Of a DNA stretch of 64,000 nucleotides, positions 1-19,389 are shown piece by piece. The position numbers and the translations under genes were made by a program. How positions within the stretch are numbered: the first letter of the stretch is position 1; every line of letters begins with the position of its first letter. Where the stretch lies: NCBI GenBank assembly GCA_963708025.1, contig CAVPSB010000015.1, forward strand, positions 192,001 to 256,000, given 5' to 3'. The notes under the pieces were generated by a model that saw only the letters and a program-made list of their open reading frames with translations, searched no databases and was not told the DNA's origin. Source of the DNA: an uncultured Candidatus Rokubacteria bacterium (lineage in GTDB: Bacteria > Methylomirabilota > Methylomirabilia > Rokubacteriales > DASRDR01).

Positions 1-1053
1 GTCCGGGCCGGCATCCAGCCGTTCCTCAGCGACTTCCGCGGCTTCCTCTTCGCCGACAACGAGCTGGGCGTCCGGTTCCTCGGCAACTACTTCGCGAACC
101 GCCTCCAGTACAACGTGGCCTACTTCCACATGCTGGAGAAGGACACCAACAGCGGGTTGAACCGGCTGACCGCCCGGGACCAGAACGTCGTCATCGCCAA
201 CCTCTACCGCCAGGACTTCATCTGGCCCGGCTACACCGCCCAGCTCAGCTTCCACTACAACAACGACAGAAGAGCACCCAGTTCGACGACAACGGCTTCA
301 TCGTCCGACCGGCGGCCATCGGCACGATCCAGGAGCACGAGCTCGACGCCTACTACCTCGGCTGGACCGGCGACGGCCACATCGGGTGGCTGAACATCAC
401 CCACCCGTTCTACCAGGTGCTCGGCCGCGACAGCCTCAACCAGATCGCCGGCCGCTCGGTCGACATCAACGCCCAGATGTTCGCCCTCGAGCTCTCGGCG
501 GACCTCGACTGGCTGCGCCCGAAGGTCTCGTTCCTGTGGGCCTCGGGCGACCCCGATCCCCAGGACGGCACCGCCCGCGGCTTCGACACGATCTTCGACA
601 ACCCGAACTTCGCCGGCGGGCCGTTCAGCTTCTGTCCGCCAGGGGATCGCGCTGACCGGCGCCCGGTGAACCTGGTCAATCGGAACAGCCTGGTGCCCGA
701 CCTCCGCTCCAGCAAGGAGCAGGGGCAGGCGAACTTCGTCAACCCCGGCCTGTTCCTCTTCAACGTGGGCGTCGACGCCGCGGTCACCCCGAAGCTCAAG
801 GCCCTGTTCAACGTCAACTACCTCCGCTTCCAGGATACCGAGCTCGCTCCGGGTGCTCCTCTTCCAGAACAAGATCCGCGACGACATCGGCTGGGACCTC
901 AGCCTCGGGATCCAGTACCGGCCGTTCCTGAACGACAACATGATCGTCACGGCCGGCTTCGCGGGATTCATCCCCGGCGACGGGTTCAAGGACATCTACC
1001 AGAAGGACGACCTGCTCTACTCGGCGTTCGCCACCTTTACCGTCACGTACTGA
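1..1053 (+). CDS. Outer-membrane beta-barrel protein (alginate-export/porin-like), 5'-truncated by window edge, frameshifted
   Basis: Joined frames give amphipathic beta-strand-like segments (QMFALELSADL, LFLFNVGVDAAV, WDLSLGIQYRP) and a C-terminal YSAFATFTVTY with a terminal aromatic residue (beta-signal-like). TGA at 1051-1053. Confidence 0.7.
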
Positions 1054-1158
1054 GAGACCGTGAGGGGACCGACCCCGACCGCGGGCGAGGGATGACCCAA
1101 GGGGGGGACCCGGGGGAGGAGCGCGCAGCGCCCCCCCGGCCCGACTGAGAGGAGCGCC

Positions 1159-4100
1159 ATGCTCAGCGCAGCGACTCGAGGTGGTCTGGGCCGCGCCGCC
1201 CTCGGCTGGGGGCTCTCGGCTGTACTCGTGGCATTCGTCATCGTCGCCTGTGCCCGGGCGCCGCGAGCGCCGTGCCGGTCGCCGAGATGGCGACCAAGGC
1301 CGGCGACCTGAAGAAGCAGACGGAGCAGGACGTGGCCAAGAAGAGCGCCGGCTGCCTGACCTGCCACACCCAGACCGACTCGCAGACCATGCACGAGTCG
1401 CGACGGTGAGCTCGGCTGCATCGACTGCCACGGCGGCGACGCCGGACCGACGGCGCCGGCCGGCACGAAGGCCGGGGACGCCACCTACGAGGCGCAGAAG
1501 AAGGCGGCGCACGTGCTGCCGCACGACACCCATCTCTTCGCGCACCTCGGCGAACCCCGAGCGCTCGGCCACCGCCTGGCTGAAGGAGCGCGGAGTTCGT
1601 CCGGTTCGTGAACCCCGGCGATCTGCGGGTGGCCCGGGTGACGTGCGGCCTCACCGGCTGCCACCCCACCGAGGTGGCGGCGGTCGAGAAGAGCATGATG
1701 ACCCACGGCGGCCATGCTGTGGGGCGCCGCGCTCTACAACAACGGCGCGTTCCCGATCAAGCATGCCGCGGTTCGGCGAGAGCTACGGACCCGACGGCAC
1801 GCCCCAGCGCGCTGCAGACCGTCCCGCCGCCGACCCCCGAGGAGATCGTCAAGAAGGGCGTGCTGCCCTTTCTCGACCCGCTGCCGCGCTTCGAGGTCGG
1901 CCAGCCGGGCAACATCCTGCGCGTCTTCGAGCGCGGCCAGCGCAAGCCCCTCGAGATCGGCCTCCCGATCGTCGACGAGGACCCGGCCGGCCGGCCAACC
2001 GGCTGAGCCACCGCGGGCTCGGCACCCTCAACCGCACCGACCCGGTCTTCCTCAGCCTGCAGAAGACGCGCCTGCTCGACCCGATCCTCTCGCTTCCTCG
2101 GCACCAACGACCACCCCGGCGACTACCGCTCGAGCGGCTGCACGCGCCTGCCACGTGGTCTACGCCAACGACCGCGATCGCCGGTCCACTCCGGCCCGTA
2201 CGCCGCAGTTCGGCAACCTGGGCCGGACGCCAGCGACCGATCCGACCATCCCGCAAGGACGAGTCCGGGCACCCGATCAAGCACACGTTCACGAACGCGA
2301 TCCCCACCAGCCAGTGCATCGTCTGCCACATCCACCCGGGCACCAACGTGTGACACGACGCTACCTCGGCTACACCTGGTGGGACAACGAGACCGACGGC
2401 GAGCGTGATGTACCCGGCCAAGGAGCGCAGCAGCTCACGCGCCGAGCAGGTCGCACGAGATCCGAGCGGCCAACCCCGAGGGCGCCGCCGCTGCGCGGGC
2501 TGTGGTCGGACGTCGACTTCCTCGCACAACGTGACGCGACCTCAACCCGCAAGCTCACGCGCACCCAGTTCGCCGACTTCCACGGCCACGGCTGGATCTT
2601 CCGCGCCGTCTACAAGCAGGACCGCAAGGGCAACCTGCTCGACGCCAAGGACGACAGGTCGTCGCCCCCGACGATCCCGACCAGCTTCAAGAAGGCCGTG
2701 CACCTGAAGGACATCCACCTCGAGAAGGGGATGCACTGCGTCGACTGCCACTTCGAGCAGGACGTGCACGGCAACGGCAAGCTCTACGGCGAGACGCGCA
2801 ACGCGATCGAGATCGACTGCGTGGACTGCCACGGCACGATCGACGAGCAGGGCCACGCTGCGACGTCGGGCCCGGCGGCGCCCGCCGGGCGGCACCGACC
2901 TCTCGACCGCTGCACGACGCCGTTCGGCCAGCGCCGCTTCTACTGGCGGGGCGACACGCTGATCCAGCGCTCGATGGTCGACCAAGGAGCTCGCAGTGGG
3001 AGGTCGTGCAGGTGCTCGACACCATCGACCCGCCTCGACTGGGCCCGGCCAACCCGAAGTACAGCGAGCGGTCGCGGCTGGCCAAGACGATGCGCAAGGA
3101 CGGCACGACCTGGGGCGCCGTGCCGGCCGAGAGGGCAAGGACCTGGCGCACGCCGACGCCAAGATGACCTGCTACACCTGCCACACGTCGTGGATGACGA
3201 GCTGCTTCGGCTGCCACCTGCCGATGCAGGCCAACGAGCGCGAAGCCGCTCCTGCACAACGAGGGCGACGAGCCGCGCAACTGGACGCCGTACAACTCCC
3301 AGGTGCTGCGCGACGACGTCTTCATGCTGGCGATCGACGGCACGGTCACCGGGCAACCGGATCGCGCCGGTCCGCTCCTCGAGCGCCGTCCTCGTCGGCT
3401 CGCAGAACGCCAACCGCGAGTGGGTCTACTCGCAGCAGCAGACCGGTCTCGGCCGAGGGCTTCAGCGGCCAGGCCTTCAACACGTCACGTTCCCCACACG
3501 GTGCGCGGCCGACCGAGACGCAAGCAGTGCACCGACTGCCACGTCTCGGCAGGCGAACGACAACAACGCCTGGATGGCGCAGCTCCTGCATGCAGGGCAC
3601 GAACTTCGTCAACTTCATCGGCCGCTACGTCTACGTGGCCGAGGGCAAGGCGCGGGCTCGAGGCGGTCGTCGTCACCGAGCGGGACGAGCCGCAGGCGGT
3701 GATCGGCAGCCACCTGCACGAGCTGGCCTACCCGACGAACTACCAGCAGCACGCGGCGCGCGGCAGCCGTCCTGCAGGAGGCCTACCACCACCGGGGCCG
3801 CGACGTCTCGACTGTTCGGCCGGCGACGAGGTGCTGTCCATCCAGCTCCGCGGCGAGTACCTCTACACCGCCAACGGGCCGGGCGGCTTCCGCGTCTACG
3901 ACGTCGCCAACATCGACAACAAGGGCTTCTCCGAGCGCATCGTGACCGCGCCGGTCTCGCCGCTCGGCCAGCGGCTCTACGTGAAGACCAAGTACGCGAC
4001 CGCGGTCGCGTCGCCCACCACGCTGGCGCGTCGACCCGACGCGGGCGCAGCGGCCGGAGAACGCAGGAGCAGCCGATCCACCCGCTCTACGCGCTACCTC

Positions 4101-5075
4101 TACGTCACCGACCGGGAGGAAGGGCTCGTGTCATCGGCATCCGCCGTCGAACCGCCGGCGCACGCTGCTCGACGGCGATCCGAACAACAACTTCCTCGAA
4201 GCGCGCCGTCGCCTTCAACCCCGACGGCGTGCTCGACGGCGCCGTCAACCTCACCATCGCCGGCACGCTACGCCTACGTCCTGCGCCAAGCGCGGCCTCG
4301 TCGTCGTCGACCTCGACGACCCGCTCCAGCCGACGGTCGTGGCCGAGGTCGGCGCGCCGGCGATCGTCGAGCCCGCGCGCCGTCGCCGTGCAGTTCCGCT
4401 ACGCCTTCGTCACCGACGGCGAGGGGCTGAAGGTCATCGACGTCACCGAGCCGACCGCGCCCCGGCCGGTGCCCGGCGCGACGGTGCCGCTCGCGGACGC
4501 GCACGGGATCTACGTCGCCCGCACCTACGCCTACGTCGCCGCCGGCGCCAAGGGCTGGTCGATCGTCGACGTCGAGCGAGCCGGAGCGCGCCGACGCTCG
4601 ACCAGATGTACAACGCCGACGGCGCGCATCAACGACGCGCGCGACGTGAAGGTCGGCATGACCAACGCCAGCGCTCTTCGCCTACGTCGCCGACGGCAAG
4701 AACGGCCTGCGCGTCGTCCAGCTCATCTCGCCGCGACGACAACGCCGAACTACACTCGGCTTCAGCCCGCGGCCGACGCCGCGGCTCATCGCCACCTACG
4801 AGACGCACGGGCCGGCGCTGGCGCTCTCCAAGGGCCTCGACCGCGACCGCGCCGTCGACGAGAGCGGCAACCAGATCGCCGTCTTCGGCCGGCGCGGCGC
4901 CCGCCCGTTCAACCGGGCCGAGATGGAGCGCCTGTACCTCCGCGACGGCAAGCTCTGGACGGTGAAGGACACGCCGCCCGGCGCGCCGCGAGAGATGAAG
5001 GGCGCGGAGCCGAAGAAGGAAGAGGAGCCCGCCCCGCAGGAGCGCCGGCCCCGCCGCGGCGCCCCCGGCGGCTAG
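1159..5075 (+). CDS. Large multiheme c-type cytochrome lipoprotein with C-terminal LVIVD-type repeats (many frameshifts)
   Basis: SD GAGGAG then ATG 1159; hydrophobic signal ending in lipobox-like IVAC. Heme motifs across frames: CLTCH, CIDCH, CGLTGCH, C(TA)CH (split by an indel), CIVCH, CVDCH, CVDCH, CYTCH, CFGCH, CTDCH. Then repeats such as [50 protein letters not shown] at 5073-5075. Confidence 0.8.
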
Positions 5076-5138
5076 ATCCATCCGGGGGGTCTCGGAAGAC
5101 CCCCCGGATTCCCCCCCTCGGTTGCGCGGGCGAAGCCC

Positions 5139-5294
5139 GTGCTCGGAGCGGCCTGGACAGGCCGCGCGGCGGGACGCATCCTGCTGAGCGACGTCATCGT
5201 GTTCAAGAAGGAAGTCGTGATCATGTTGGTGGCCGTCCTCACCCCGATCACGCTCCTGGTGTTGATCGTCGTGATACGCATGCTTCTGCGATAG
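5139..5294 (+). CDS. Possible small single-pass membrane peptide (~51 aa)
   Basis: Open frame from GTG 5139 to TAG 5292-5294 with hydrophobic stretch VVIMLVAVLTPITLLVLIVVIRMLLR. Shorter than anything in the ORF track; start uncertain. Confidence 0.35.
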   Translation: MLGAAWTGRAAGRILLSDVIVFKKEVVIMLVAVLTPITLLVLIVVIRMLLR

Positions 5295-5446
5295 GGCGAC
5301 GCTGCCGCCCGAGCCGCTCGGCGTCTCCCAACCGCCTGTTGCGACCTCGCAGCCGGGTGTTCCACTTTCGAGCGGCGGCTCCGCCGCCGCAATCCGTTCC
5401 TGGGGGAGGTCTCGGAGGGGGGCCGTCGAGGCCCCCTCCGATGGTT

Positions 5447-7631
5447 TCAGCGCGAGGAGATGTCGGTGGCCGGGAGGCCTTCGCTGCGGGGCGGGCGGGG
5501 GGCCGGGACGACCGGGGCCGGCAGGTTCGGGTCCTCGATCTGCTTCTTGAGCTGGGGAGCCCGGCGCTTGAATTCCTCGTAGACGGACTGGGCCTCGGCC
5601 GGGTCCAGCACGATCCGCGGGGTGACGAGGATCATCAGCTCCGTCTTGATCGTCCCCTCTGTCGTGGCGCCGAAGAGATAGCCGAGGATCGGGATCCGGG
5701 ACAGGAACGGGATCCCCTGCCGGACCAGCGCCTTCCGCTCCTCGATGAGCCCGCCCAGGACCAGCGACTCGTTCTCGCCCACCACGACCGACGTCTCGGC
5801 CACCCGCTTGATGAACACCGGCGACTGGGTGGCGGTGACGTCGTTCGGGCGGACGTCGGAGACCTCCTGGCGGACGTCCAGCGCCACGAAGCGGTTCTCG
5901 CTGACCCGGGGCAACACGGTCAGGAGGATGCCGGTGTCCCGGTACTCGACGGTCGTCGTGATCACCGAGGAGGGCTGGACCGCGCCGACCACGCCGGTCG
6001 TCGGCTGCTGCTGGCTCGTGAGGATGGGAACGGAGCGGCCCACGTGGATCTGGGCGCGCTTGTTCTCCACGGCGAGCACGCGCGGGCTGGAGAGCACGTT
6101 GACGCGGTTCTCGGCGGCGAACGCCTGGAGCATCCCCAGGAAGTCCTTGCTCTGGAGCACGAAGAAGAACGTCGGGGGGAGCGGCACGATCCCCGGCACC
6201 CCGGTGTCGAGGCCGCTGCTGAGCGTGACATTCTCCCCCCCGATCTTGATGCCGCCCGAGCGGAGCGCCCACTCGATGCCGAGCGAGGTCGAGTCGTCGA
6301 GCGTGAACTCCGCCACCAGGATCTCGATGAGGACGCGCCGCGGCATCCGGTCGAGCCGCTGCAGGATCGGCTGGAGGACCGCCCAGCTCGGCGGCGTGGT
6401 GGTGATCAGGAGGGTATTGGTGGCCTCGTCCGCGATCACGCGGACGTCCTCGGCCGCCAGGTCGTCGCCCTCCGGGACCACGCCCGGCGGCGGCAGTCCT
6501 CCGGGCGGCGGCCCCCCTGGCGCGGGCTCGAACGGCATGCCCGGGGGCAGGGGGCCGGGGCGCGGGGCCGGGAGCTCGGGCCCCTCCCCGCCGGCGGAAG
6601 AGCCCGGTCAGGGTGGTGGCCAGCTCCTTGGCCCTCAGGTGCTCGACGCGGTAGATGAAGACACCGCGCGAGGGGGGCGACTGGGTGTCGAGCCGGGTCA
6701 CCAGGGCCTGGATGCGCTCCAGCACGGCCGGCGGACCCACGGCCAGGATGGTGTTGGTTCGGCCGTCGGCGAGTATCACGGCCCGACCGCCGGTCGGCTC
6801 CTGGAGGGCCGGCCCCGGCGGCGCTCCCTCCAGCCCCTCGGGGGCTCGCGGTACCGGGGGCGGGAGCGCTCGGCCGGGAGCGGCCGGCCCGCCCGCGACG
6901 AGCTGGGTGATGAGCGGGGCCAGGGTGGTGGCGTCCGCGAAGCGGAGCGGGAAGATCTGAAGCTGCTCCTGGGCGGTCGGCACGTCCAGCATGCGGATCA
7001 CCGACAGGTACCGGCGGAGCTTCTCGACGGAGTCGGTGATCACCAGGATGTTGGTGTCACGGTGCACGGACACCGCCGCCTCCCGGCTGATCAGCGGCAG
7101 CAGCACCCGGACCAGCTCGCCCGCCGATCCGTAGCGGAGCGGGATCAGCTGGGTGACGATCTCCTCGGGCCGCCGGCTCGGATCCGGCTCGGACCCCACC
7201 ACGACGGGGAGCCCCTGGGCCTGGGCGGCGGCGATCCGGATGATCTTGTAGAGGTCGCCGGCGCGGACCGCGGTCAGGCCGTGGGTTTCCAGGACCGTCA
7301 GGAGCATGTCGAACAGCGCGCGGCGCGGCACCCGGCCCTGGACGGTCACCTTGCGGCGGACCTCGGGGGCCAGAACGTAGTTGAACTCGATGGCCTGGGC
7401 GACGGCGTCGAGGACGACGTCCAGGTCGGCGTCCTGGAAGTTCAGGGTCACCAACTCGTCCTCGGTGGCGAGGCGGGCCGGCGCCGGCGCCTGGGGGAAC
7501 ACCGGGGTCAGGACGGCGCCCGGCAGGGCGAGGACGGTGAGGACGGCGAGGGACCAGCGAGCCAGGCGCGCGCGCCTCGCCGGCAGCCCCTCCCGCCGAC
7601 GGCGCCGGGGGGTCGTGCACCACACACTCAT
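5447..7631 (-). CDS. gspD: Type II secretion system secretin (GspD-like), one frameshift near 6570
   Basis: N0 domain VTLNFQDADLDVVL, N-domain repeats (LIPLRYGSA, FPLRFADA, YRVEHLRA) and secretin core (VLIEILVAE, NVLSSPRVL, EYRDTGILLTVLPRV, IPFLSRIPILGYLF, ELMILVTPRIV). Confidence 0.9.
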
Positions 7632-7721
7632 CGGGGAGTCGTTCCGGACCGCGGGCCGTCACCCGGCCCGCCATCCGACCGGGGCACTCTACACTCGCCT
7701 CTCGCGGGCCGTCAAGCCACC

Positions 7722-9234
7722 GCATCGGATCAAAACTTCGGTTACCGAACGGAGGGGGCTCCATCAGAAGTTACGGTTACCAACTCCAGCCAGGAGGTGA
7801 CCGTGACGCGAGCCGGATTGCGGGAGTACGCCGCCGCGCAGCGGGAGCGCTATCTCGGCGCCCGGCGGGCCGACAAGCATCGGCTGCTGACCGAGGTGGT
7901 GACCGTCACCGGCCTGCACCGCAAGGCGGCCATCCGCCTGCTGCGGCGCCCCCCGCGCCCGCCCGGCGGCCGCCCCCGCTCGGGCCGCCCCCGCGTCTAC
8001 GGCCCCGCCGTGGCCGCCGCCGCGCAGCTCCTCTCCGAGGCCACCGGCCACATCGGCCCCCACCGCTGGCACCCCTTCCTCCCCGAGCTGCTCGATCGCC
8101 TGACCCGGAGCGGCGACCTGGTCGTCCCCCCGGAGGTCGACAAGCGCCTCCGCCAGGTCAGCCCCGCCACGCTGGCCCGCCTGCTGGCCCCGTTCCGGGC
8201 CACGCTCCCCGGGCGGGGGGCCACCACCACCCGCCCCGGGGCCTGGCTCAAGCATGAGATCCCCGTCCGCACCTTCGCCGAGTGGAGCGACGCCCAGCCC
8301 GGCTTCCTCGAACTCGACTTGGTCGCCCACTGTGGCCCGACCACGCGCGGCTTCTATCTCTGCACCCTCTGCGCCGTCGATGTCGCGACCAGCTGGGTCG
8401 AGCTCCAAGCCGTCTGGGGCAAGGGCCAGCTGCGGGTCGGCACCGCCATCCACCACGTCCGCCAGCGCCTGCCCATGCCCTTGCGCGGCCTGGACAGCGA
8501 CAACGGCTCCGAGTTCATCAATCACGACCTGTATGCCTGGTGCCAGCGCGAGGGCATCACCTTCACCCGCAGTCGTCCCTACCAGAAAAACGACAGCGCC
8601 CACGTCGAGCAGAAGAACGGCGCCATCGTCCGCCCCCTCATCGGCTATGATCGGTACGCCTCCCGCGCCGCCTATGCCCAGCTCGCCCGCGTCTACGAGC
8701 TCGCCCGGCTGCACATCAACTTCTTCCAGCCGGTCCAGAAGCTCGTGACCAAAGCGCGCCGCGGCCCGCGCGTGCATCGCGTGTACGACCGCGCCCAGAC
8801 CCCGTATCAGCGCCTGTGTGCCACGGGCGTCCTCCCGCCCCCGCGCCGGCAAGAGCTCGAGGCCGTGTATCAGCGGCTCAACCCCCTGCACCTCCGCCGG
8901 CAGCTCGAGGCCGCCCTGGATCGCCTCTGGCCCTTGGCCGTCCCGGCCCCGCCCGCGCCGGCCGCACCCCGGGAAAACGCCCCGGAAAGGGAATAGCCGG
9001 ATATGGCCTCGCGCCCAACTCGCGCTCCTACGGGCGCCCAGCGGCCCGCGCGCCTGACCCCGGGCCTGGCCAGCGGCCCCAGGCGCTCCCGGGGCGCGCC
9101 GCCCGCCCGGTCCGCCGGCACTCCCACGGCCTCACGCGCCGCCCTGGGCGGCGCCGCCACCCTGCGGCCCCGGGTAACCCTGACTTCTGATCTGACGGAT
9201 CACGGAGGGTAACCCTGACTTATGAGTGACCGCG
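7722..9234 (+). mobile_element. Insertion sequence with DDE (integrase-core) transposase and doubled subterminal inverted repeats
   Basis: Left repeats end GGTTACC at 7746 and 7781. Right repeats start GGTAACC at 9173 and 9208 (35-bp period at both ends). Possible 6-bp direct repeat GCCACC at 7716-7721 and 9235-9240. Confidence 0.75.
7803..8996 (+). CDS. DDE transposase (rve/integrase core; ISNCY-like)
   Basis: SD AGGAGG then GTG 7803. Motifs GFLELDLVAHCG, LDSDNGSEFIN, FTRSRPYQKNDSAHVEQKN. Frame intact. Confidence 0.9.
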   Translation: MTRAGLREYAAAQRERYLGARRADKHRLLTEVVTVTGLHRKAAIRLLRRPPRPPGGRPRSGRPRVYGPAVAAAAQLLSEATGHIGPHRWHPFLPELLDRLTRSGDLVVPPEVDKRLRQVSPATLARLLAPFRATLPGRGATTTRPGAWLKHEIPVRTFAEWSDAQPGFLELDLVAHCGPTTRGFYLCTLCAVDVATSWVELQAVWGKGQLRVGTAIHHVRQRLPMPLRGLDSDNGSEFINHDLYAWCQREGITFTRSRPYQKNDSAHVEQKNGAIVRPLIGYDRYASRAAYAQLARVYELARLHINFFQPVQKLVTKARRGPRVHRVYDRAQTPYQRLCATGVLPPPRRQELEAVYQRLNPLHLRRQLEAALDRLWPLAVPAPPAPAAPRENAPERE

Positions 9235-9361
9235 GCCACCACTCGCCACCGGCTGGCCGTCGTGGGCCATGACGAAACCCCTTGACCGGCTCATTCGCTG
9301 TCGCTAGGATGCTCACACCCTTGCTTGGCACTTCACCCCTGACCGTGAAGGAGTCGCGGCG

Positions 9362-10589
9362 ATGAGCAGGAGCCTCCCGGGCATCACGTCCCTCATCCTC
9401 GTTGCGGCGATGGCCGTCGTCATCGGAGCCGCCGTGCAGAGCGCGGAGGCGCAGCTGGCGATTTCGAAGGAGTTCAAGTACACCGGCACCGGCTCGTGCG
9501 CCGCCTCGAGCTGCCACGGCGCCAAGAAGCCGGCCGCCAAGCCGGGCGATCCCGACGACACCTACACCGTCTGGGCGACCAAGGACAAGCACAACAAGGC
9601 GTATACCACGCTCACCAAGAAGGAATCGGTCGCGATCGCCCAGAAGCTCAAGATCGCCAAGGCGACGGAGTCGGACAAGTGCACCGGCTGCCACGCGCTC
9701 CACATCACCAAGGAGATGCTGGCCCCGAAGGCGAAGTACGACGTCGCCGACGGGGTGAGCTGCGACTCCTGCCACGGCCCGGCCGAGAAGTGGCTCGAGG
9801 GGCACGACAAGGGCGAGAAGAACTGGCCGCACGCGAAGTCGGTGAGCATGGGGATGTACGACACCAAGGACGTGCTGAAGCGGGCCGAGCTCTGCGTCTC
9901 GTGCCACCTGTCGATCGAAGCCGAGATGGTGGCGGCCGGTCATCCGACGATGATCTTCGAGCTCGACAGCTTCAGCGCAGAACCAGCCCCCGCACTGGAA
10001 GGACCAGAAGGACTGGTTCGGCGCCCAGGCCTGGAGCACCGGTCAGGCGGTCGCCCTCCGGGAGTCGGCCCAGCAGCTCGCGACCCGGGCCAAGGGGAAC
10101 GCGCCTGAGGCGCTGATCAAGGAGAGCTTTGACCAGACCCGCGGCCACGCCATCTCGCTGCGGTCGGTCCTGGGCCAGGTGGCCGCCGACGCCGGCAAGA
10201 AGCTCGACGCCGAGATCGCCGCGATGGGCGACGGGAAGGACAAGGCCAAGGTGGCGGCCGCCGCGACCAACGTCGCCAAGCTCGGCGGCGACCTCTCCAA
10301 GCAGCTCTCGCAGACGAAGTTCAACAAGGACATCGTCTGGGCGACTCTCAAGGCGGCGGTGAGCGATCCCGAGCGGGCGACCTCGGCCGGGCTGCGCTCG
10401 GCCGAGCAGGTGGCCATGTCGGTGGACAGCCTCTTCCGCTCGGTCAACGCCGTGGCGAAGCCTCCCGAGGGGAAGGCCATCGACGCCGCGATCGGGAAGA
10501 TGTTCGACGAGCTGCCGAGCAAGCCGGCGGACTTCGACGCCAAGAAGTTCTCGGCCAACCTGCAGGCGATCGGCAAGAACATCAAGTAG
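9362..10589 (+). CDS. Periplasmic tetraheme cytochrome c (c554/c552-like N-domain plus helical C-domain), frameshift near 9985
   Basis: Signal peptide; CAASSCH, CTGCH, CDSCH, CVSCH. Continues in a second frame to TAG 10587-10589. Confidence 0.85.
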
Positions 10590-10605
10590 AGCCGCCGGCG
10601 ACGCA

Positions 10606-12355
10606 ATGGCGCAGCCTGGCGAGGTCATCGTCTCCGAGCTGCGGGAGATTCAGCACCGGTACGGCTATCTCCCGGTGGAAGAGCTCCGCGCGCTCTCCGC
10701 CCGCATCGCGGTGCCCGTCTACCAGCTCCACGGCGTCGCCAGCTTCTTCCCCCACTTCCGGCTGCACCCGCCGGCCTCGGTCGAGGTGCGGGTCTGCGCC
10801 GACATGTCGTGCCACCTCAACGGGGCCCGGCAGCTCCTCGGCGCCTTCCAGACCGAGGCCAACCGGATCTCCGACATGGACGTCCAGACCGTGTCCTGCC
10901 TGGGGCGGTGCGATCGGGCGCCGGCGGCGGAGATCGGCGAGCACATCCTCGAGTCCGTCTCCATCGAAGAGGTCCCCGACCTCGTCCTGTCCGCCGCCGA
11001 CGGCAAGATGGAGCCCCGGCCCCGGGTCGGCGCCCAGCCCACGGCTCTCCGCAGCGATCCCTACAGCGGCAGCCCGCGCTACGAGGCGGTCCAGCAGTTC
11101 CTGGGTCACGGCGACGTCGAGCGAGTGCTGGGGACCCTCAAGGCCGCCGGGCTGCGCGGCATGGGCGGGGCCGGCTTCCCGACCGGCGGACAAGTGGGAG
11201 CTCGTGCGCAGCGCGCCGGGCGACGACAAGTACATCGTCTGCAACGCCGACGAGAGCGAGCCCGGCACCATCAAGGACCGCTTCATCCTGGAGTCCCTGC
11301 CCCTATCTGCTCGTGGAGGGCATGATCGCTCGCCGGCCTGGTCACCGGCGCCCGAGCAGGGCATCGTCTACATCCGCCACGAGTACGAGCCAGATGCGAG
11401 GAAGCGCTCGAGCGCGCCATCCGCGAGGCGCGGCAGCAGGGCGTGCTCGGCCCCCGGGTCATGGGCTCGGACCGCACCTTCGAGCTCGAGACTCTTCGTC
11501 AGCCCCGGCGGCTACATCTGCGGCGAGGAGTCCGCGCTGCTCGAGGCGATGGAGGGCAAGCGGGCCGAGCCGCGCAACAAGCCGCCGTTCCCGGTCACCC
11601 ACGGCCTGTACGGCAAGCCGACCGTCATCAACAACGTCGAGACCCTGGCCTTCGTGCCGCTCATCCTGCTGCAGCGGCGCCGACTGGTTCAAGGCGCAGG
11701 GCGCAGAACGGCGCGGCAGCGGCCTCAAGTTCGTCGGCATCAGCGGCGCACGTGGCGCGGCCGGGCGTCTACGAGGTCGCCGATGGGCACGCACGGCCCG
11801 CGAGGTCATCTACGACCTCGCCGGCGGCATGCCGGAACGGGCGGCGCGCTGAAGGCCTGGGCCCCGTCGGGGCCGTCGTCGGGCTTCCTGCCGGCCTCGA
11901 TGATCGACTTGCCGCTCGACTTCGGACACGCTGGCCAAGGCCGGCTCGATGCTCGGCTCGGGCGCGGTGCGTCGTGATGGCCGAAGGCACGTGCATGCTC
12001 GACATGGCGCTCAACGCCGTACGCTTCTTCCGCAACGAGTCGTGCGGCAAGTGCGTGCCGTGCCGGGTCGGCTCCGCAGAAGATGGTCGAGCTGCTCGAC
12101 CCGGGTCGACGCGGGGCCAGGCCGGACCGGGCGACATGGACACGCATCGACGACCTCGACCAGGCGCTGCGGCTCACCTCGATCTGCGGCCTGGGCCAGG
12201 TCGTGCCGAAGCCGATGCGCTCGGTCGATCCAGCACTTCCGCGAGGAGGTGGACGACGCACCTCCTCCGGCAACGCTGCCCCGCGGGCGTGTGCTCTGGA
12301 TCAGGCGGCGGGCTCCGATCGGGACTTGACGGCGACCATCATGAGGCGGCTCTGA
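10606..12355 (+). CDS. NuoE-NuoF-like fusion (2Fe-2S + FMN/NAD(P)H-binding + 4Fe-4S), frameshifted
   Basis: NuoE motifs GVASFFPHF, VCADMSCH, SCLGRCDRAP. NuoF motifs GLRGMGGAGFPTG, CNADESEPGTIKDR, YICGEESALLEAMEG, NNVETL, ESCGKCVPCRVG, SICGLG. TGA/ATG overlap at 12353-12357. Confidence 0.9.
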
Positions 12356-14586
12356 TGGCGCCGGCCACGTCGAGGCGACCATCGACGGGAAGTCGGTCGA
12401 GCGTGCCGGCCGGCACCACGATCTTCGACGCCGCCCGCGCGGCTCGAGCATCGCCATCCCGACCCTCTGCCACCCGCAGCACGCAGACGCCGGTCGGCGT
12501 CTGCCGCGTCTGCGTGGTCGAGGTGAAGAACGCGCGCGTGCTGCCGGCGGCCTGCGTCCGGCCGGTCGAAGCCGGGCATGGAGGTCATGACCGCGCGCCG
12601 AGGCGTGCAGCGAGCGCGCCGGACGCTGGCTCGAGCTGCTGCTGGCCGACCACCCCGTCCCCTGCGCCCGGCAGGCGAAGACGCGGCGACTGCGAGCTGG
12701 AGAACCTGGCCGCGGGCTGCCGACCTGGCGCCGGCCGCGCTTCGCGAGGCCGCCCGTCGCCGCGTGGGCGCGACGACTCGCCCCCCATCATCGCCGTCGA
12801 CCACACCGCCTGCATCCTGTGCGACCGCTGCATCCGCGGCTGCACGCGAGGTGCAGGCACAACTTCGTCATCGGCCGCGCCGGCAAGGGCTACGCGGCGG
12901 GGATCGCCTTCGACACCGACGTCCCCATGGGGAAGTCGACCTGCGTGTCGCTGCGGCGAGTGCATGGTCTCGTGCCCGACCGGCGCGCTCACCCTCAAGA
13001 CCGAGGCGGCGTCGTCGCCGGCCTCGACCCGGCGGCCAGCTGGTCGGCGAGACGCTGACGTCGGCCGACGATCCGGGACGTGCCGATCTTGCGAGGGGTG
13101 TCGGGCAACGTTCCTGGACCTGAACCGCGGCGCCGGTGGTCGGCGGCACGTTCCAGCCGGGCGAGGTCATCTGCCGGGAGGGCGAGTTCGGCTCCACCGC
13201 GTTCTACGTCCTGAGGGGCAAGGTCGAGGTCTCCATCCCGACCCCGATGGCCCACTGCGACGAGCCACGCCGGGGCTCCACGGGCGGCTGGCGGGGCTGC
13301 GCTCCACAAGATGACCCGAGCTCCGGTGCACAGCGGGACGGAGCCCAGGCGGAGTCGGCGACGCCCACCGGCTATCATCCCGATCGACGCCTCCGTCGAC
13401 CTCGCCTACGACAAGCCGGTCGCCCAGCTCGGGCCCGGCGAGCTGTTCGGCGAGATGACCTGCCTCATCTTCTATCCGCGCTCGGCCACCGTGCGGGCGG
13501 TCGAGGACGACCGTCGTCCTCGAGATGCTGCGCAACGTGCTGCAGATCCTGCAGCGGAACAAGACGTTCCGGCCGAGCTCGAGCGCGCGCTATCGCGAGC
13601 GCGCGCTCGACACGCACCTGCGCAGCGTCCCGATCCTGGCCGGCCTCACCGACGAGTTCATCGACCGACCTGCGCGACAGCGTCGAGCTGGTCCGCTACG
13701 AGCCCGGGCGAGGTGATCTGCCGGCAGGGCGACGCCGGCCGACAGCTTCTATCTGATCCGGATCGGCTTCGTGAAGGTGACGCCAGACGTTCCCCGGCGG
13801 CGAGCTGGTCGCTGCCGTACCTGGCCCGCGGCAACTACTTCGGCGAGATCGGTCTGCTGGGCGGCGGCGTCCGGACCGCCACCTGCACCGCGCTCGACCA
13901 CGTCGAGGTGGTCCGCATCAGCGGCCGACGACTTCCGACGCATGCTCGAGCGCTTCCCCGACGATCCGCCGCGCGCCTCGGCGGACGTGGCCCGAGCGCC
14001 GCACGCGAGGAGAACGCAGCGGCAGGCCTCACGGCTCGTCGACGTCGCCGCTCGAGGACTTCCTCGGCCAGGGGCTGATGGAGGCGCAGAACCTGCTGCT
14101 CATCGACCTCGACCGCTGCACGCGCTGCGACGCCTGCGTGCGGGCCTGCGCCGACGCGCACGACGGCGTCACGCGGCTGGTCCGCGACGGGCTGCGCTAC
14201 GACAAGTACCTGGTGGCGACCTCGTGCCGCTCGTGCCGCGACCCGCTGTGCATGGTCGGCTGCCCGGTCGGCTCGATCCGGCGCACGGACTCGCTCGAGA
14301 TCATCATCGAGGACTGGTGCATCGGCTGCGGCTGTGCGCCGAGCACTGCCCGTACGGCAACATCAACCTGCACCCGTTCAAGGTCACCGCCGACGCCCGA
14401 GCGCCGGCGGCAAGAAGGCGGTGGTCCGCGAAAGGCGACCGCGCTGCGACCTGTGCCGCGAACTGAACAGAGCCGAGCTGCGTGTACGCGTGCCCGCACG
14501 ACGCCGCCATGCGGGTCGAGCCCCGCGAGTTCTTCGCGACCGGGACGTCCCAGGTCCGGGGCGCCCCGCCGTCCATCCGGTCATGA
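12355..14586 (+). CDS. Fe-S protein: NuoG/HoxU-like N-terminus + two cNMP-binding domains + C-terminal multi-[4Fe-4S] domain, frameshifted
   Basis: N-terminal GVCRVCVVEV...AACVRP, CILCDRCIRGC, CGECMVSCPTG. cNMP domains EVICREGEFGSTAFYVLRG...LFGEMTCL..YPRSATVRA and EVICRQGD...YFGEIGLL..VRTATCTA. C-terminal CTRCDACVRAC, CRSCRDPLCMVGCP, CIGCG.CAEHCPYG, CDLC...CVYACPH. ATGA overlap with next gene. Confidence 0.85.
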
Positions 14587-15506
14587 TCATCGATCGCGGT
14601 CACCTCCGGTGGGTGGCGATCTGCCTCGGCATCCTCCTCGCTTCCACCGCGGTCTACATCCCGTACCACGTCCGCTCGCTCAACGGGCCGTCGGGCGGCA
14701 GCCTGATCGGGCTCCTCTTCGGCTTCATCGGCTACGGGCTCATGCTCTTCGCCGGCGCGCTCGGCGTGCGGACCCGGCGCGCGACCTGGCGCTTCGGTCG
14801 CGCGGAGACCTGGCTCAAGGGCCACGTCTGGCTGGCCCTGCTGGCCTATCCGCTGATCTACTTCCACGCCGGCTTCGCGTTCGGCGGGCCGCTGACCGTG
14901 GCGCTCATGATCCTGTTCACCATCGTGACCGTCAGCGGCCTCGTCGGCGTGGTGCTCCAGGGGATCCTCCCCCGCATGATGACCGAGCGGGTCCCGCTGG
15001 AGACGATCTTCGAGCAGGTGGACAACGTGCTGGCCCAGATCCGGGGGGAGGCCGACCACGTGGTCAAGGCGGTCGCCGATCCGGAGCAGGCGTCGGCGGA
15101 CGAGGCGGCGGCCACGGTCGGCCGCCGGCCGCCCCCGTCGGCTCGGCGGGCGCAGGTGCGGGCGCAGATCGGAACCACGTCGGCCCCGGCCGAGGAGGCC
15201 CAGGCCCTCAAGGAGTTCTACGAGAACGAGGTGCGCCCGTACCTGTACGACAAGGCGGGACGGACCGCGTCGCTCAACAGTCCGTCGAAGGCGGCGGTGG
15301 TCTTCGCCCAGCTCCGGACGCGGGTGCCGGACGAGCTGCACCACGTCGTGGACGACCTCCAGGCCATCTGCGAAGAGCGCCGCCAGCTCAAGGTGCAGAC
15401 CGGACTCCACTACTGGCTGCACGCGTGGCTCCTGGTCCACGTGCCGCTGTCGCTGGCGCTGCTGCTACTGTCCGCCGCGCACGCCGTCCTGGCGTTGCGC
15501 TACTAG
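14583..15506 (+). CDS. Polytopic membrane protein with His residues in TM helices (ferric-reductase/cytochrome b-like)
   Basis: About 5 hydrophobic helices; WLKGHVWL, IYFHAGF, WLHAWLLVHVPLS. Translationally coupled to the upstream Fe-S gene. Confidence 0.7.
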   Translation: MIIDRGHLRWVAICLGILLASTAVYIPYHVRSLNGPSGGSLIGLLFGFIGYGLMLFAGALGVRTRRATWRFGRAETWLKGHVWLALLAYPLIYFHAGFAFGGPLTVALMILFTIVTVSGLVGVVLQGILPRMMTERVPLETIFEQVDNVLAQIRGEADHVVKAVADPEQASADEAAATVGRRPPPSARRAQVRAQIGTTSAPAEEAQALKEFYENEVRPYLYDKAGRTASLNSPSKAAVVFAQLRTRVPDELHHVVDDLQAICEERRQLKVQTGLHYWLHAWLLVHVPLSLALLLLSAAHAVLALRY

Positions 15507-15515
15507 AGGCACTTC

Positions 15516-17073
15516 GTGGCGCGGGAGCGAACGACCAAGGGGCTGGCCAAGCGGATCGAGCTGACCTACTACCAGCACCTGCATCCCTTCCGGCGCCTGT
15601 GGCGGATTCTCTGCATCGCCCTGGTGTCGGTCGCCGCGGTGTGGCTCATCGTGATGGCGGTCATGGGGGATCAGCGGATCTACACGAGCGGTCCGGTGGC
15701 GACGGCTCACCGGATGTTCAACCTCGACTGCGAACGCTGTCACGTTCGACCGGCCGACGCCGGCGGCCCCGGTGGCCAAGGCCGACGGCGCGGCGCCGGC
15801 GGCGCCCGTCATCCCGGTCTCGACGACGCGGCACCCTGGCGGCTTCTTCCGCCGGGTCAGCGACGGCGCCTGCTTCAGCTGTCACGATGCCCCCGACCAC
15901 CACGCCAACGCGGCAGTGTCGCTGCGGTGCGCCGAGTGCCACCTCGAGCACAAGGTGGAGACCACGCTGGCCCGGATGTCGGACCGGCACTGCGTCCTCT
16001 GCCACGCCGACCTGAAGACCAAGAGCGGGACCACCGAGTACGAGCGCCAGGTCGTCAGCCTCGCCCGGCATCCGGAGTTCGCGGTCTTGCGGAAGAACGT
16101 CAAGGACGCGACCCAGATCAAGCTGAACCACGAGACCCACCAGAAGCCCGACTTGCCGGCCGGCGGCGGGAAGCGCGTGACGCTCGGCTGCGTGAGCTGC
16201 CACGTGCAGGACGACGCCGGGAAGTACATGAAGCCGATCTCCTTCGACCTGCACTGCAAGCAATGCCACCCGCTGGAGGCCAGCGCCGACGTCGTCGTGC
16301 CCCACCAGCGGCCCGAGATCATCCGGGGCTTCCTGCTCAGCCGCTCCGCCCGAGGCGGCGGGGCCGCGGCCAGCCCGGCGGCGGCGCCCGGCGCCGAGAA
16401 GCCGGCCGACAAGCCGGCCGAAGAGGAGGCCCCGAAGGGCCGCCGGCGGGGAACCGGCTCATCCGCGTTGCCGGAGGCGCTCGTGCGGCTCGTGGGCTGG
16501 GTCCAGGAGGCGGTCGGGACCACCGAGCGCCCGCCGATCCAGCTCGTCCAGCGGCAGCGCGGCGGGGGCGCGCCGGAGGCGCCGGCGGCGCCCTCCGGAG
16601 CGGCCCCGGCCGGAGCGGCGCCTGCCGCAGCGGCCCCGGCCGCGGGTGGCGGGGGTGGCGGGCTGGCGGGGGTTGTCCAGCTGGAGAAAGGCTTGTACGA
16701 GGGCAGGTCGGCGGTCTGTCCCTACTGCCACATGATCGAGAAGGCCGATCCGCTGCCCCGCATCGTGCCGCCGAAGATCCCCGTGCGCTGGTTGCCGCGG
16801 AGCTCGTTCGACCATCGAGCGCACCGGCCGCTGGCCTGCCTGGCCTGCCACCCGGACGCCAAGAAGAGCACGGACACGGCCGACGTGTTGTTGTCGAAGG
16901 TGGCAGTCTGTCAGGAGTGCCACCGGGAAGGCGGCGGGGCCCGGGCGGGCTGCGTGGAGTGCCACCTCTATCATGACCGGTCCAAAGAGCGGTCGCCGGA
17001 CGGCCCGCACACGGTGCCTCAGTTCGCCGTCACGGCCGGACGTCCGACCGCCGCGCCAGCGACGAAACCCTGA
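15516..17073 (+). CDS. Membrane-anchored decaheme cytochrome c (c3/c7-like), frameshift near 15770
   Basis: N-terminal TM anchor; CERCH, CFSCH, CAECH, CVLCH, CVSCH, CKQCH, CPYCH, CLACH, CQECH, CVECH. Confidence 0.9.
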
Positions 17074-17181
17074 CGCGACGCCAGCCGGCGGGCGCGTCGC
17101 TCCGGTCTGTGGACAGCCGTTCCGCGATCGTGGTAGGGTGCGGGCGGTAACGTAAACGACGGGCTTCTCTGAGGGAGGGGA

Positions 17182-18660
17182 ATGGGCACGCGAGACGTCT
17201 CCCGAATCGGTACGGGTGTCCTGATCGCCGTCGCGCTCCTCGGGTCCGCCTCCCGGGTCGGGGCCGTCCCGCTGACCGCCGACGAAGTCCAGCTCATCGT
17301 CAGCACGGCGGCCGCCTCGATCGACGCCACCACGGCGGTCATCGCGGTGACCGACCGCTCGGGCAACCCGCTCGCCGTGTTCCGGAAGATCAACGGGAAC
17401 GCAGGGGCCGCTGACACCGCGGTGGGTCTGGCCCGGAGCGCCGCGTTCTTCGCCAACGACCAGGCCCCGCTCTCCTCGCGGACCGTGCGCTTCATCACCG
17501 AGATCCACTTCCCGCCGGGGGTCGCCGGCACGCCCAACGGCGGGCAGTACGGCATCGAGAACACGAACCGGGGCTGCACGCTGAGCAACAACTTCAACCC
17601 CGGCAAGGCGGTCCCACCGTCCCGGTCGCTCAGCGGAGGCACCGGTCCGGGCATCATCACCGGCAAGCCCGACGTGTTCGACTCGAATCCCAACGCGGTG
17701 AACCCGGGTGGTGTCCCGGTCTACAAGGACAACCAGGTCGCGGGCGGAGTCGGCGTGACCGGCGTCTCCGCCGCGGAGGCCGAGTTCGCGGCCTTCAGCG
17801 GCGGCTTCGGGAACGGAAACCCCCGGTTCTCGCCGACCTTTGGCTCGCCGGGTGTCGTCTTCATCGACGGCGTCGCCCTGCCGTTCGTGAACCAGCGGAC
17901 CCGACCGGCCGGCAGTTCCCCTGGCAGCTTCGTCGGTGACTTCCTCCTGGGGCCGCAAGGGAGCCCGAACGCCGGCGTGCCGGACGGCTATCTGGTCGGT
18001 CCCGCCGGGAGCGCCGAGCTGAGCGCGGCGGAGGTCGACGGCATCGTGCGGCGGGCCGAGGCCCAGGCCAACAGCACCCGCGCCGCGATCCGGCTGCCTC
18101 TCGGCAGGACGACCCGGATGGTGATCTCCGTCTCGGACCTCCAGGGCAACCTGCTCGCGATCTTCCGGATGCCCGACGCGACGGTTTTCAGCATCGACGT
18201 CTCCGCGACCAAGGCCCGGAACATGGTCTACTTCCCGAGCACCCGGCTCGACCCGGCCGACCTACCCGGTGTCCCGCCCGGGACCGCCCTGACCGCCCGG
18301 ACCATCAACTTCGGCACTCAGCCCCTGTACCCGCCCGGCATCGATGCCGGCGGCCCCGGCCCCTTCTTCAACCTGTTCGTCCGGGACACGGCCCGTCCCT
18401 GCACGCAGGGCAACGACCAGCAGAACCGGGGGAACCAGAGCGGGATCGTCTTCTTCGCCGGCTCGGCCCCCCTGTACCGGAGCGGGGTGCTGATCGGCGG
18501 GCTCGGGGTGAGCGGCGACGGCGTCGAGCAAGACGAGGTCGTGACCGACGCTGGGTCACGTGGATTCGAGCCGCCCGACAACATCCGGGCCGACAACATC
18601 TTCATCCGCGGGGTCCGGCTCCCGTACTTCCGGTTCAACCGGAACCCGACCGCGCGCTGA
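17182..18660 (+). CDS. Secreted heme-binding protein with two GlcG/HbpS (DUF336)-like domains
   Basis: Signal peptide. Two units: IAVTDRSGNPLAVFR...GGVPVYKDNQVAGGVGVTG and ISVSDLQGNLLAIFRM...GSAPLYRSGVLIGGLGVSGDGVEQD. Confidence 0.8.
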   Translation: MGTRDVSRIGTGVLIAVALLGSASRVGAVPLTADEVQLIVSTAAASIDATTAVIAVTDRSGNPLAVFRKINGNAGAADTAVGLARSAAFFANDQAPLSSRTVRFITEIHFPPGVAGTPNGGQYGIENTNRGCTLSNNFNPGKAVPPSRSLSGGTGPGIITGKPDVFDSNPNAVNPGGVPVYKDNQVAGGVGVTGVSAAEAEFAAFSGGFGNGNPRFSPTFGSPGVVFIDGVALPFVNQRTRPAGSSPGSFVGDFLLGPQGSPNAGVPDGYLVGPAGSAELSAAEVDGIVRRAEAQANSTRAAIRLPLGRTTRMVISVSDLQGNLLAIFRMPDATVFSIDVSATKARNMVYFPSTRLDPADLPGVPPGTALTARTINFGTQPLYPPGIDAGGPGPFFNLFVRDTARPCTQGNDQQNRGNQSGIVFFAGSAPLYRSGVLIGGLGVSGDGVEQDEVVTDAGSRGFEPPDNIRADNIFIRGVRLPYFRFNRNPTAR

Positions 18661-18829
18661 GCTCCGCCGGAGGGGGGCACTTGCCCCCCTCCGGGGGCTC
18701 GGCTGATCAGGAACTCGCCAGGCGACCGTCGCCAACCCGGCTCAGATCCGACCAGGCGCGAGTGGCGACCTTCGTGTGGTCCGATCATCAAGTATCTATG
18801 AAATCAGCTGTTCACCGCGTTTGTCGTTG

Positions 18830-18846
18830 CTGGCACGGCCCATGCT
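18830..18846 (+). promoter_or_regulatory. sigma54 (-24/-12) promoter
   Basis: CTGGCACGGCCCATGCT: GG-N10-GC with a TGGCACG consensus half, just upstream of ORF 18862. Confidence 0.6.
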
Positions 18847-18861
18847 CGAGAGCTGGCCAGC

Positions 18862-19182: not shown

Positions 19183-19389
19183 CCTCCCGGGTCCACCGCC
19201 GTCCGCGACTCTCCCCGATTCGCCGAGCCGGGCCGTTCTCCTCGCCGCCCCTCTGGACGTACTCGCTGAGGTATCGTCGTCTCCTCGCCCGGGGACACGC
19301 GATGGTGGACAATGTCCAGGCCGGGTGGCGCGAGGCGGTGGTTGTATGCTGGAGGGGGAACCCCCCATTCAGGAGGCCCTCGAGCGACA

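Follow-up and report, generated by a model that had tools for sequence, protein, structure and literature searches.

A co-inherited gene cluster of Rokubacteria and other phyla that may pass NAD(P)H electrons through a putative di-haem membrane protein to multihaem cytochromes

How far could electrons from cytoplasmic NAD(P)H travel through a cell envelope that is equipped with the products of a single gene cluster from an uncultured Candidatus Rokubacteria bacterium? The question is raised by eight plus-strand genes within the first 18,660 nucleotides of the stretch analysed here (the window: 64,000 nucleotides, positions 192,001 to 256,000 of contig CAVPSB010000015.1, assembly GCA_963708025.1). 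They encode an outer-membrane β-barrel, a multihaem protein with LVIVD repeats, a c554-like tetrahaem cytochrome, a NuoE-NuoF fusion (NuoEF), an Fe-S protein with predicted cyclic-nucleotide-binding domains (Fe-S/cNMP protein), a membrane protein, a decahaem cytochrome and a double HbpS/GlcG-like protein. The initial annotation had proposed a continuous wire from NAD(P)H to the cell surface. The analysis gave good support to the gene set being a conserved, co-inherited module. That the module exports NAD(P)H electrons across the inner membrane to the periplasm, bypassing the quinone pool, appears to us about as probable as its opposite. For the outer membrane, an enzyme served by a channel is favoured over the threaded wire.

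The source assembly comprises 8.17 Mb in 49 contigs with approximately 71% G+C, and the closest homologues of the cluster are found in Candidatus Rokubacteria/Methylomirabilota. Plain lists of open reading frames (ORFs) were misleading at 1-5075 and 11000-14500, where the G+C signal at third codon positions (GC3) changes frame every few hundred bases. The plus strand was read as stop-free pieces (from 1-19179) that were compared with Pfam, intact orthologues were mapped by tblastn, and the frames were followed by GC3 frame plots and a rough codon-usage Viterbi path. The eight genes of the initial annotation are present, though only when they are read across many frameshifts.

The conservation of the set was determined from 80 loci that were collected with a 16-row alignment of the decahaem cytochrome as anchor, all window pieces being then placed on each locus. 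The loci derive from Rokubacteria/Methylomirabilota, Planctomycetota, Acidobacteriota, Riflebacteria, Cloacimonadota, Bdellovibrionota-like and other metagenome-assembled genomes and represent at least seven phyla. Within 10 kb of the decahaem gene, using summed-score thresholds, the membrane protein gene was found in 60 loci, a ferredoxin domain in 50, a c554-like cytochrome in 46, the cNMP part in 27, the LVIVD protein in 25, the barrel in 22, the GlcG pair in 20 and NuoEF in 19. The barrel is present in 21 of the 25 loci that have the LVIVD protein. Contig ends limit 37 of the 55 loci without the latter to less than 20 kb; in five Rokubacteria genomes it was missing from the locus but present in the genome each time, in four cases 2-3 kb past the locus edge. 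The fullest row was observed in the Riflebacteria locus (L017), where barrel, LVIVD protein, decahaem cytochrome, two c554-like cytochromes, NuoEF, Fe-S/cNMP protein and membrane protein follow each other on one strand; seven of the eight genes thus share the strand, and the GlcG pair adjoins on the other one.

Within the phylum, one sample of 151 genomes was analysed, several of the positives coming from one genus and therefore not representing independent events. The membrane protein was found in 17 genomes, the LVIVD protein in 16 and the barrel in the same 16 (both counts include the unpublished genome G083). The double HbpS/GlcG protein was found in 13, each of them a holder of the rest of the set, and all four components together occur in 13 genomes. 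Both the membrane protein and the LVIVD protein were absent from 132 genomes, and two (G049 and G083) contain the LVIVD protein and no membrane protein. Separate occurrence of the two halves of the cluster (1-5075 and 9362-18660) had been named initially as the outcome that would speak against a common system. Instead, the halves co-occur across phyla and follow one phyletic pattern within the phylum, which bears out the claim that the parts belong together.

The proposed route across the inner membrane depends on the intact membrane protein. Across 150 representatives with a likeness of no more than 50%, H81, H95 and H286 occur without exception and H300 in 149. The AlphaFold2 (AF2) model (mean predicted local distance difference test, pLDDT, 89.2) contains helices at residues 6-31, 41-63, 74-95, 103-136 and, after a helical insert, 250-306. 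Helices 74-95 and 250-306, which run the same way, each carry one pair of these histidines with a spacing of 14 residues. Two His pairs so spaced on two membrane helices are the classical pattern of two bis-His b-haems stacked across a membrane. Because of these four invariant histidines, the protein is assigned here to a new family and regarded as a putative di-haem cytochrome b. The N-terminus and the 63-73 loop are placed on the cytoplasmic side because both contain basic residues.

This family has so far no name. The membrane protein of the window gave no Pfam match at E up to 1, and the L017 copy none in Pfam or NCBIfam at 0.001; a sequence search against the PDB gave a best E of 1.4. The only named families touched are haem-b families, with sub-threshold Pfam matches among 38 members to DUF4405 (14 members), Ferric_reduct (10) and Ni_hydr_CYTB (5), and the top Atlas cluster has been automatically named ferric-reductase-like transmembrane component (score 0.97). 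The family comprises 5,330 representative clusters at E up to 0.001, and 884 at 1e-30. Among the best 120 homologues listed, every given name is "hypothetical" and no Pfam domain is recorded; the best 150 representatives contain no CXXCH or 4Fe-4S motif that would indicate a fusion. The membrane subunit alone thus defines a large unnamed family in abundant, mostly uncultured soil, groundwater and sediment phyla.

The cytoplasmic components were identified by their domains. The intact NuoEF orthologue of locus L009 (562 amino acids) contains 2Fe-2S_thioredx, Complex1_51K, SLBB and NADH_4Fe-4S. The intact Fe-S/cNMP orthologue of the same locus (720 amino acids) begins with Fer2_4 and Fer4_Nqo3 as in HoxU/NuoG-N, followed by cNMP_binding in three stretches and by a Fer4 dicluster domain; it has no signal peptide, and Fer2_4 begins at residue 5. 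In L009 and in the window pieces, the NuoE, NuoF and NuoG-N/HoxU domains scored above the Pfam gathering scores with the exception of SLBB (26.7 versus a cut-off of 27), whereas all NCBIfam scores were below the equivalog cut-offs (262.8 versus 558.65 for NuoF, 110 versus 333 for HoxU, and NuoE below as well). The pieces of the window contain no hydrogenase, molybdopterin or membrane Nuo domain in the Pfam scan, as stated initially. Because two further NuoEF-plus-NuoG-like loci are located elsewhere in the genome (on contigs C32 and C34), the NuoEF of the cluster is regarded as an extra, dedicated copy.

The cNMP_binding domain scored 58.1 bits on the window piece and 127.7 bits in three stretches in L009. 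The motif FGE...R[ST]AT, which we take to be the phosphate-binding-cassette motif of the CAP/PKA-type cyclic-nucleotide-binding domain, occurs twice in the window, in L009 and in the Planctomycete locus L014, and was not found in L017. The Fe-S/cNMP protein is predicted from its sequence to carry CAP/PKA-type cyclic-nucleotide-binding domains.

On the opposite side of the membrane, the homologues of the decahaem cytochrome mostly comprise approximately 450-590 amino acids, the closest having 518 amino acids and 95% identity. The family has a conserved basic cytoplasmic N-terminus, one hydrophobic transmembrane helix and ten invariant CXXCH motifs; the cytochrome of the window also has a Pro/Ala/Gly-rich linker. 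A search of the PDB sequences with the decahaem profile returned no solved relatives, the best match being to a c7/c3-type stretch (8.6e-4). The c554-like cytochrome matches Pfam Cytochrome_C554 at 9308-10105 (E 4.1e-11) and has four haem motifs, a signal peptide and a helical C-terminal half; its orthologues were found in L017 and L014. On the plus strand of the window, nine, four and ten haem motifs were counted for the LVIVD protein, the c554-like and the decahaem cytochrome, respectively, against 10 + 4 + 10 initially. The tenth motif of the LVIVD protein is taken as lost at a frameshift because its single-ORF orthologues have ten (7 of 7), so that the original count stands.

The membrane protein with two haems was modelled together with residues 1-260 of the decahaem cytochrome. 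The complex prediction gave a score of 0.59 (best of three controls: 0.00), with at least 71% of contacts agreeing between runs and a partner pLDDT of at least 66. The mark used for such predictions is reached by 58 of 80 solved complexes and by 2 of 110 mismatched pairs, and seven of the 80 complexes as well as both passing mismatches reach it at 0.60 or under. The prediction thus lends weak support to a contact between the membrane protein and the decahaem cytochrome.

From topology signals and gene neighbourhood, the following order of carriers is proposed. The NuoE-F fusion would oxidise NAD(P)H in the cytoplasm and pass the electrons via FMN and its Fe-S clusters to the HoxU/NuoG-N-like clusters and from there to the two-cluster ferredoxin domain on the same 720-amino acid protein. 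The two or three cyclic-nucleotide-binding domains would probably gate a flow that otherwise could drain NAD(P)H and depolarise the cell. The ferredoxin end is expected to dock on the five-helix membrane protein, whose two stacked b-haems would carry the electrons across the inner membrane. They may then enter the decahaem cytochrome, tethered by one helix on the outer face, and subsequently soluble c554-like cytochromes. Outward flow is favoured because electrons would run downhill to almost any acceptor and the membrane potential would assist their transfer. A complex of this kind would dispose of reducing power or supply low-potential electrons rather than conserve energy.

Several observations weigh against this proposal. 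The binding of haem b by the membrane protein is predicted from the conserved histidines; a Foldseek search of the PDB gave no solved relative for this protein at E up to 0.001, and the wide VIA search returned generic helical bundles and coiled coils only (best Z 9.6). NuoEF lies near the core in 19 of the 80 loci and is absent from the Planctomycete form, so NAD(P)H is not the universal donor of the core. In the L014 cluster, this form consists of a cNMP/ferredoxin protein, the membrane protein, the decahaem cytochrome and two c554-like genes, and it ends in a PQQ-type propeller gene (PQQ_2) instead of NuoEF. The NuoEF-linked forms were also considered as one clade, which was rejected since seven changes are needed on the membrane-protein tree, at least two of them forced by well-supported branches. 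The set is patchy, a strong decahaem match (E 1e-88 or better) being present in 3 of 30 near relatives. In the LVIVD protein, no catalytic site has been recognised. In the copy of the window, finally, three genes contain 6-8 frame switches per kb in contrast to their intact neighbours, and this copy may be non-functional if the switches are real.

As NuoEF is not universal, the conserved core would be the ferredoxin/b/decahaem unit, with a donor that varies. The Planctomycete membrane proteins (L014 7507-9888 and other Planctomycete loci) have 690-880 amino acids, with an insert of 400-550 amino acids in the loop that joins membrane helices four and five on the cytoplasmic side. In the tree, the membrane protein of the window stands outside the well-supported main Rokubacteria clade, in an unresolved position among Acidobacteriota rows, and shares no more than 51% identity with any other row. 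The c554-like gene upstream in the window's copy was seen in none of 18 Rokubacteria loci. Both features may hint at a transfer.

The proposed inner-membrane half was compared with known systems. Hmc, Tmc and DsrMKJOP as well as CbcL from Geobacter, as generally described, have the same design: an Fe-S protein faces the cytoplasm, a membrane subunit holds b-haems, and a multihaem c-type cytochrome lies in the periplasm, the three together moving electrons across the inner membrane. Unlike Hmc, Tmc and Dsr, the cluster has no CCG/HdrD-type domain (Pfam; window pieces, L017 and L009). It differs from all four in that its membrane subunit belongs to no named family, its Fe-S protein is joined to a NuoEF/HoxU module and to cNMP domains, and its likely electron flow would be outward from NAD(P)H without quinone. 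The HoxEFU/NuoEFG N-module has the same cofactor domains (NuoE with 2Fe-2S; NuoF with FMN/NADH, SLBB and 4Fe-4S; HoxU/NuoG-N with 2Fe-2S and 4Fe-4S). In the cluster, however, NuoE and NuoF form one protein, the U-like part shares its chain with cNMP and ferredoxin domains, and hydrogenase, quinone-reducing and proton-pumping Nuo subunits are missing (pieces 1-19179, L017 and L014).

The closest parallel in logic is offered by NADPH oxidases and other ferric-reductase-domain proteins and by MsrQ with Fre, in which, as generally described, electrons pass from a pyridine-nucleotide dehydrogenase via two bis-His b-haems to an outer acceptor. The membrane protein differs from these by five helices instead of six, by His spacings of 14 and 14, and by a large cytoplasmic helical insert, and none of its matches reaches a Pfam cut-off. 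The input would be via an Fe-S chain instead of a fused FAD domain, and the output would be to a decahaem wire. We tentatively propose, while judging the idea rather more apt to fail than to hold, that the module is the bacterial equivalent of an NADPH oxidase, with multihaem cytochromes connected to it. Gated by cyclic nucleotides and independent of quinones, it would bring electrons of NAD(P)H level (approximately -320 mV) over the inner membrane and perhaps as far as the cell exterior; its hosts would be Rokubacteria, Acidobacteriota, Planctomycetota and further phyla of soils and sediments with few cultured members.

The literature searched contained no published description of the core, which also belongs to no named family. 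The initial statement that no characterised complex has such a make-up therefore holds for the family libraries, PDB sequences and literature searched. The accessible part of a quinol-oxidase survey gives one ImcH homologue in Rokubacteria and contains no mention of NADH (PMC6295460). The available part of a study on Verrucomicrobia porin-multihaem cytochrome systems describes a porin of at least 20 strands together with an 8-haem cytochrome (PMC5615132). The closest papers found thus treat other systems.

The known routes of extracellular or periplasmic electron disposal begin, to our knowledge, at the quinone pool, which caps the reducing power available outside the cytoplasm. If the proposal is true, direct transfer from NAD(P)H via two b-haems to a decahaem cytochrome would be a second route of lower potential, acceptors too low in potential for quinol-based routes would become accessible, and the apparent control by cyclic nucleotides would regulate respiration in an unusual manner. 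Should the function be confirmed, the module would have to be counted in genome-based estimates of redox cycling, be it of iron, manganese, humics or other compounds.

Whether electrons could continue through the outer membrane depends on the barrel and the LVIVD protein. The barrel orthologue of L009 comprises 600 amino acids with a signal peptide and the C-terminus ...FTFTY. Its AF2 model consists mostly of long antiparallel strands (mean pLDDT 66.6), with the N-terminal 80 residues disordered. The best Foldseek match was the 18-stranded AlgE (E 5.3e-16, probability 1.00, TM-score 0.65 on the target, 14% identity), followed by OprD-type and then general porins. The first gene thus encodes a β-barrel, as had been assumed, and the model identifies it as a channel of the 18-strand kind with AlgE-like fold. 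At the sequence level, Alginate_exp matched 2 of 16 barrel members (best E 0.0076), short of family membership. The barrel is also longer than AlgE (approximately 600 versus 430-460 amino acids) and has the disordered N-terminal extension; no polysaccharide synthesis genes were found among its neighbours in the window and L017, which are cytochromes.

The single-ORF LVIVD orthologues combine a signal peptide and the haem motifs with a C-terminal LVIVD β-propeller. Atlas clusters of this make-up occur in Verrucomicrobiota, Pseudomonadota, Planctomycetota and Acidobacteriota under the name "hypothetical", and the PDB sequence search gave a best E of 0.29. The only paper on LVIVD combined with multihaem proteins that was found treats, in the part available, an unrelated LVIVD surface protein. 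The only named relative is ExtM from Geobacter, which matches a haem-binding stretch of 64 residues in the L017 orthologue (E 2e-21); the 76 bits are far under the NF040943 cut-off of 800. ExtM is a 12-haem cytochrome of the Geobacter extHIJKLMNOPQS cluster, which is upregulated with Fe(III) oxide; in the available part of the source it is described without an LVIVD propeller, and the ext cluster uses a Rieske/cytochrome b pair (PMC5877670). The secreted HbpS-like protein contains two stretches of this Pfam domain (17173-18657; 9e-21, 74.7 bits versus a cut-off of 25).

The full wire of the initial annotation, in which the LVIVD decahaem protein passes through or caps the barrel and delivers electrons to insoluble acceptors outside the cell (Fe(III)/Mn(IV) oxides or humics, for example) in the manner of MtrCAB and the porin-cytochrome complexes of Geobacter, is the best surviving alternative, though an unlikely one. 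In its favour is the obligate adjacent pair of barrel and LVIVD genes, seen in the same 16 of 151 genomes and in 21 of 25 loci and inherited together with the inner-membrane electron carriers; a barrel gene beside a ten-haem cytochrome is also what likens the cluster to MtrCAB. The ExtM match fits with it, as does the lipobox-like VIVAC site with signal peptide; the protein had initially been called a lipoprotein. The VIVAC site, however, is found in the copy of the window only and is absent from the orthologues. The fold of the barrel argues against the wire, the moderate quality of its model likewise being listed on that side. MtrB needs 26 strands to sheath MtrA. An MtrB_PioB match was obtained neither with the L017 barrel (E up to 0.001) nor with 16 members (E up to 1). 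A single cytochrome gene stands beside the barrel.

For MtrA and MtrC, no match reached its cut-off. The decahaem cytochrome scored 23.1 bits on the DmsE/MtrA model TIGR03508 (cut-off 192.2) and, unlike MtrA, has an N-terminal membrane anchor. The MtrC/OmcA domain PF22113 stayed below its 30-bit cut-off throughout (19.5 in the c554-like piece of the window, 26.9 and 20.9 in L014), and the inner-membrane partner is not a CymA-type quinol oxidase. Of the wire from NAD(P)H to the surface, the inner-membrane half is thus retained, with an anatomy suited to NAD(P)H-to-periplasm transfer, whereas an outer-membrane step of the MtrAB type is not borne out.

An LVIVD enzyme with its own channel is favoured over a threaded haem wire because the 18-strand barrel is narrow compared with MtrB. 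The last station of the electrons would then be the LVIVD ten-haem protein as terminal oxidoreductase, located in the periplasm or against the outer membrane on its inner side, and its substrate would pass a dedicated channel, 18-stranded and AlgE-like. The secreted double HbpS-like protein may be an accessory component.

The frameshifts allow a further explanation, which we consider improbable: the cluster may be decaying here, with real frameshifts in the LVIVD, NuoEF and Fe-S/cNMP genes and an insertion sequence (IS)-linked rearrangement that split the set, so that the module would work in relatives only. The codon-usage Viterbi path switches frame 24, 10 and 17 times in these three genes, in contrast to once or twice in the membrane protein (1), decahaem (2), GlcG (1) and c554-like (2) genes and 1-3 times in three control genes; each count includes one artefactual switch at the stop codon, an edge effect. 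The 3-kb bins of the cluster contain 15, 11, 8, 10 and 21 GC3-phase switches, and the bin with 21, that of the Fe-S/cNMP gene, is in the top 0.3% of 2,691 bins genome-wide. Moreover, a secretin gene and an rve-family integrase gene lie between the halves, while in seven Rokubacteria loci the divergent barrel and LVIVD genes are directly upstream of NuoEF; by this comparison, the window's copy has been rearranged.

Against decay, dense islands of switches are common in this assembly (at least ten in 15.4% of the bins), and the shifted pieces each retain a GC3 of 0.8-1.0 as well as similarity to the orthologues. Internal stops in the LVIVD gene were also found in genomes G031 and G033 but not in G034 and G035, which fits assembly quality. 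Public sequencing runs were also compared: the best contained 0.14 of the sampled words, and the contigs from four runs represent relatives with 90-95% likeness to the window, not this strain. Single-base indels distinguish these contigs from the window at or close to several switch places, indicating that the relatives read through, although such a comparison cannot separate error from mutation. The frameshifts of the window's copy are probably assembly errors.

Flow in the reverse direction, from low-potential periplasmic or extracellular donors to NAD(P)+ as an uptake route for lithotrophy, is the least probable alternative: the sequence itself fixes no direction, NuoEF/HoxEFU-type modules of known enzymes are reversible, and c554-type cytochromes bring electrons inward from hydroxylamine oxidation in nitrifiers, but inward flow would oppose the membrane potential and, with NAD+ at approximately -320 mV, would require donors well below that value unless energy were supplied, while the region contains no proton-pumping or ion-coupled subunit (Pfam of the pieces) and no adjacent hydrogenase or formate dehydrogenase catalytic subunit (window, L017 and L014).

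The positions of the genes are compiled in Table 1. Two gene ends were revised by the mapping of orthologues and homologues: the genes are real, but the barrel gene ends near 1050 rather than at 1148, and the decahaem gene starts at 15516 rather than 15772.

Table 1. Features at the start of the window, with the evidence for each (positions in the window).
Feature	Position	Strand	Evidence and remarks
Outer-membrane β-barrel gene, 3' two-thirds	1..1053	+	Orthologue tblastn; frameshifts near 267 and 843
LVIVD multihaem protein, approximately 1,250-1,300 amino acids, secreted	1157..5075	+	Pfam LVIVD near 4380, haem motifs, orthologue mapping; about 23 frame switches
Secretin gene, GspD-type (Secretin, Secretin_N, N0 domains)	5447-7631	-	One frameshift near 6540
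rve-family integrase, IS	about 7800-8996	+	Sits between the cluster halves
Sigma-70-like promoter match	9282..9310	+	Approximately 50 nt before the c554-like gene; consensus match only
c554-like tetrahaem cytochrome, periplasmic (predicted)	9362..10589	+	Pfam Cytochrome_C554, signal peptide; frameshift near 9974
NuoE-NuoF fusion (FMN, 2Fe-2S, 4Fe-4S)	10606..12353	+	Pfam 2Fe-2S_thioredx, Complex1_51K, NADH_4Fe-4S; about 10 frame switches
Fe-S/cNMP protein, cytoplasmic (predicted)	12354..14586	+	Pfam Fer2_4, Fer4, cNMP_binding on pieces; about 16 frame switches
Membrane protein, 307 amino acids, intact	14583..15506	+	Conserved histidines, AF2 model
Decahaem cytochrome c, inner-membrane-anchored (predicted)	15516..17073	+	10 CXXCH, homologues; one frameshift near 15750
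Double HbpS/GlcG-like protein, secreted, intact	17182..18660	+	Pfam HbpS-like, signal peptide

The five genes from 9362 to 17073 are as tightly packed as described initially, with the GlcG gene following after approximately 110 nt. The c554-like and NuoEF genes are separated by 16 nt, NuoEF and the Fe-S/cNMP gene join in a TGATG overlap, the stop of the latter is located roughly at the ATG of the membrane protein gene (14583), and gaps of 9 nt (15506 to 15516) and 108 nt precede the decahaem and GlcG genes, respectively. The promoter match is the sole one in 8800-19400, where shuffled sequences lead to an expectation of 0.2.

The start of the barrel gene was mapped approximately 600-800 nt before the window. 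Directly upstream of it, on the opposite strand, is an ORF with the outer-membrane domain Phenol_MetA_deg (11048-13471 (-) in locus L081, contig positions approximately 189050-191470), and further upstream follow a transporter of the major facilitator superfamily and unrelated metabolic genes.

No Rfam match was obtained for the whole window. Downstream of the cluster, a three-domain LigD (phosphoesterase, ligase, primase-polymerase) is encoded at 19312-21897 (+), and a second, stand-alone LigD primase-polymerase gene lies 24 kb from it at 45509-46534 (-). Pieces of COX3 and prokaryotic COX4 at 28290-29028 (-) are probably part of a haem-copper oxidase operon. The region 32374-38369 (+) encodes a sigma-54 activator with receiver domain, followed by a hybrid histidine kinase of 1,360 amino acids with sCache, HAMP, PAS, GAF, HisKA, HATPase and receiver domains.

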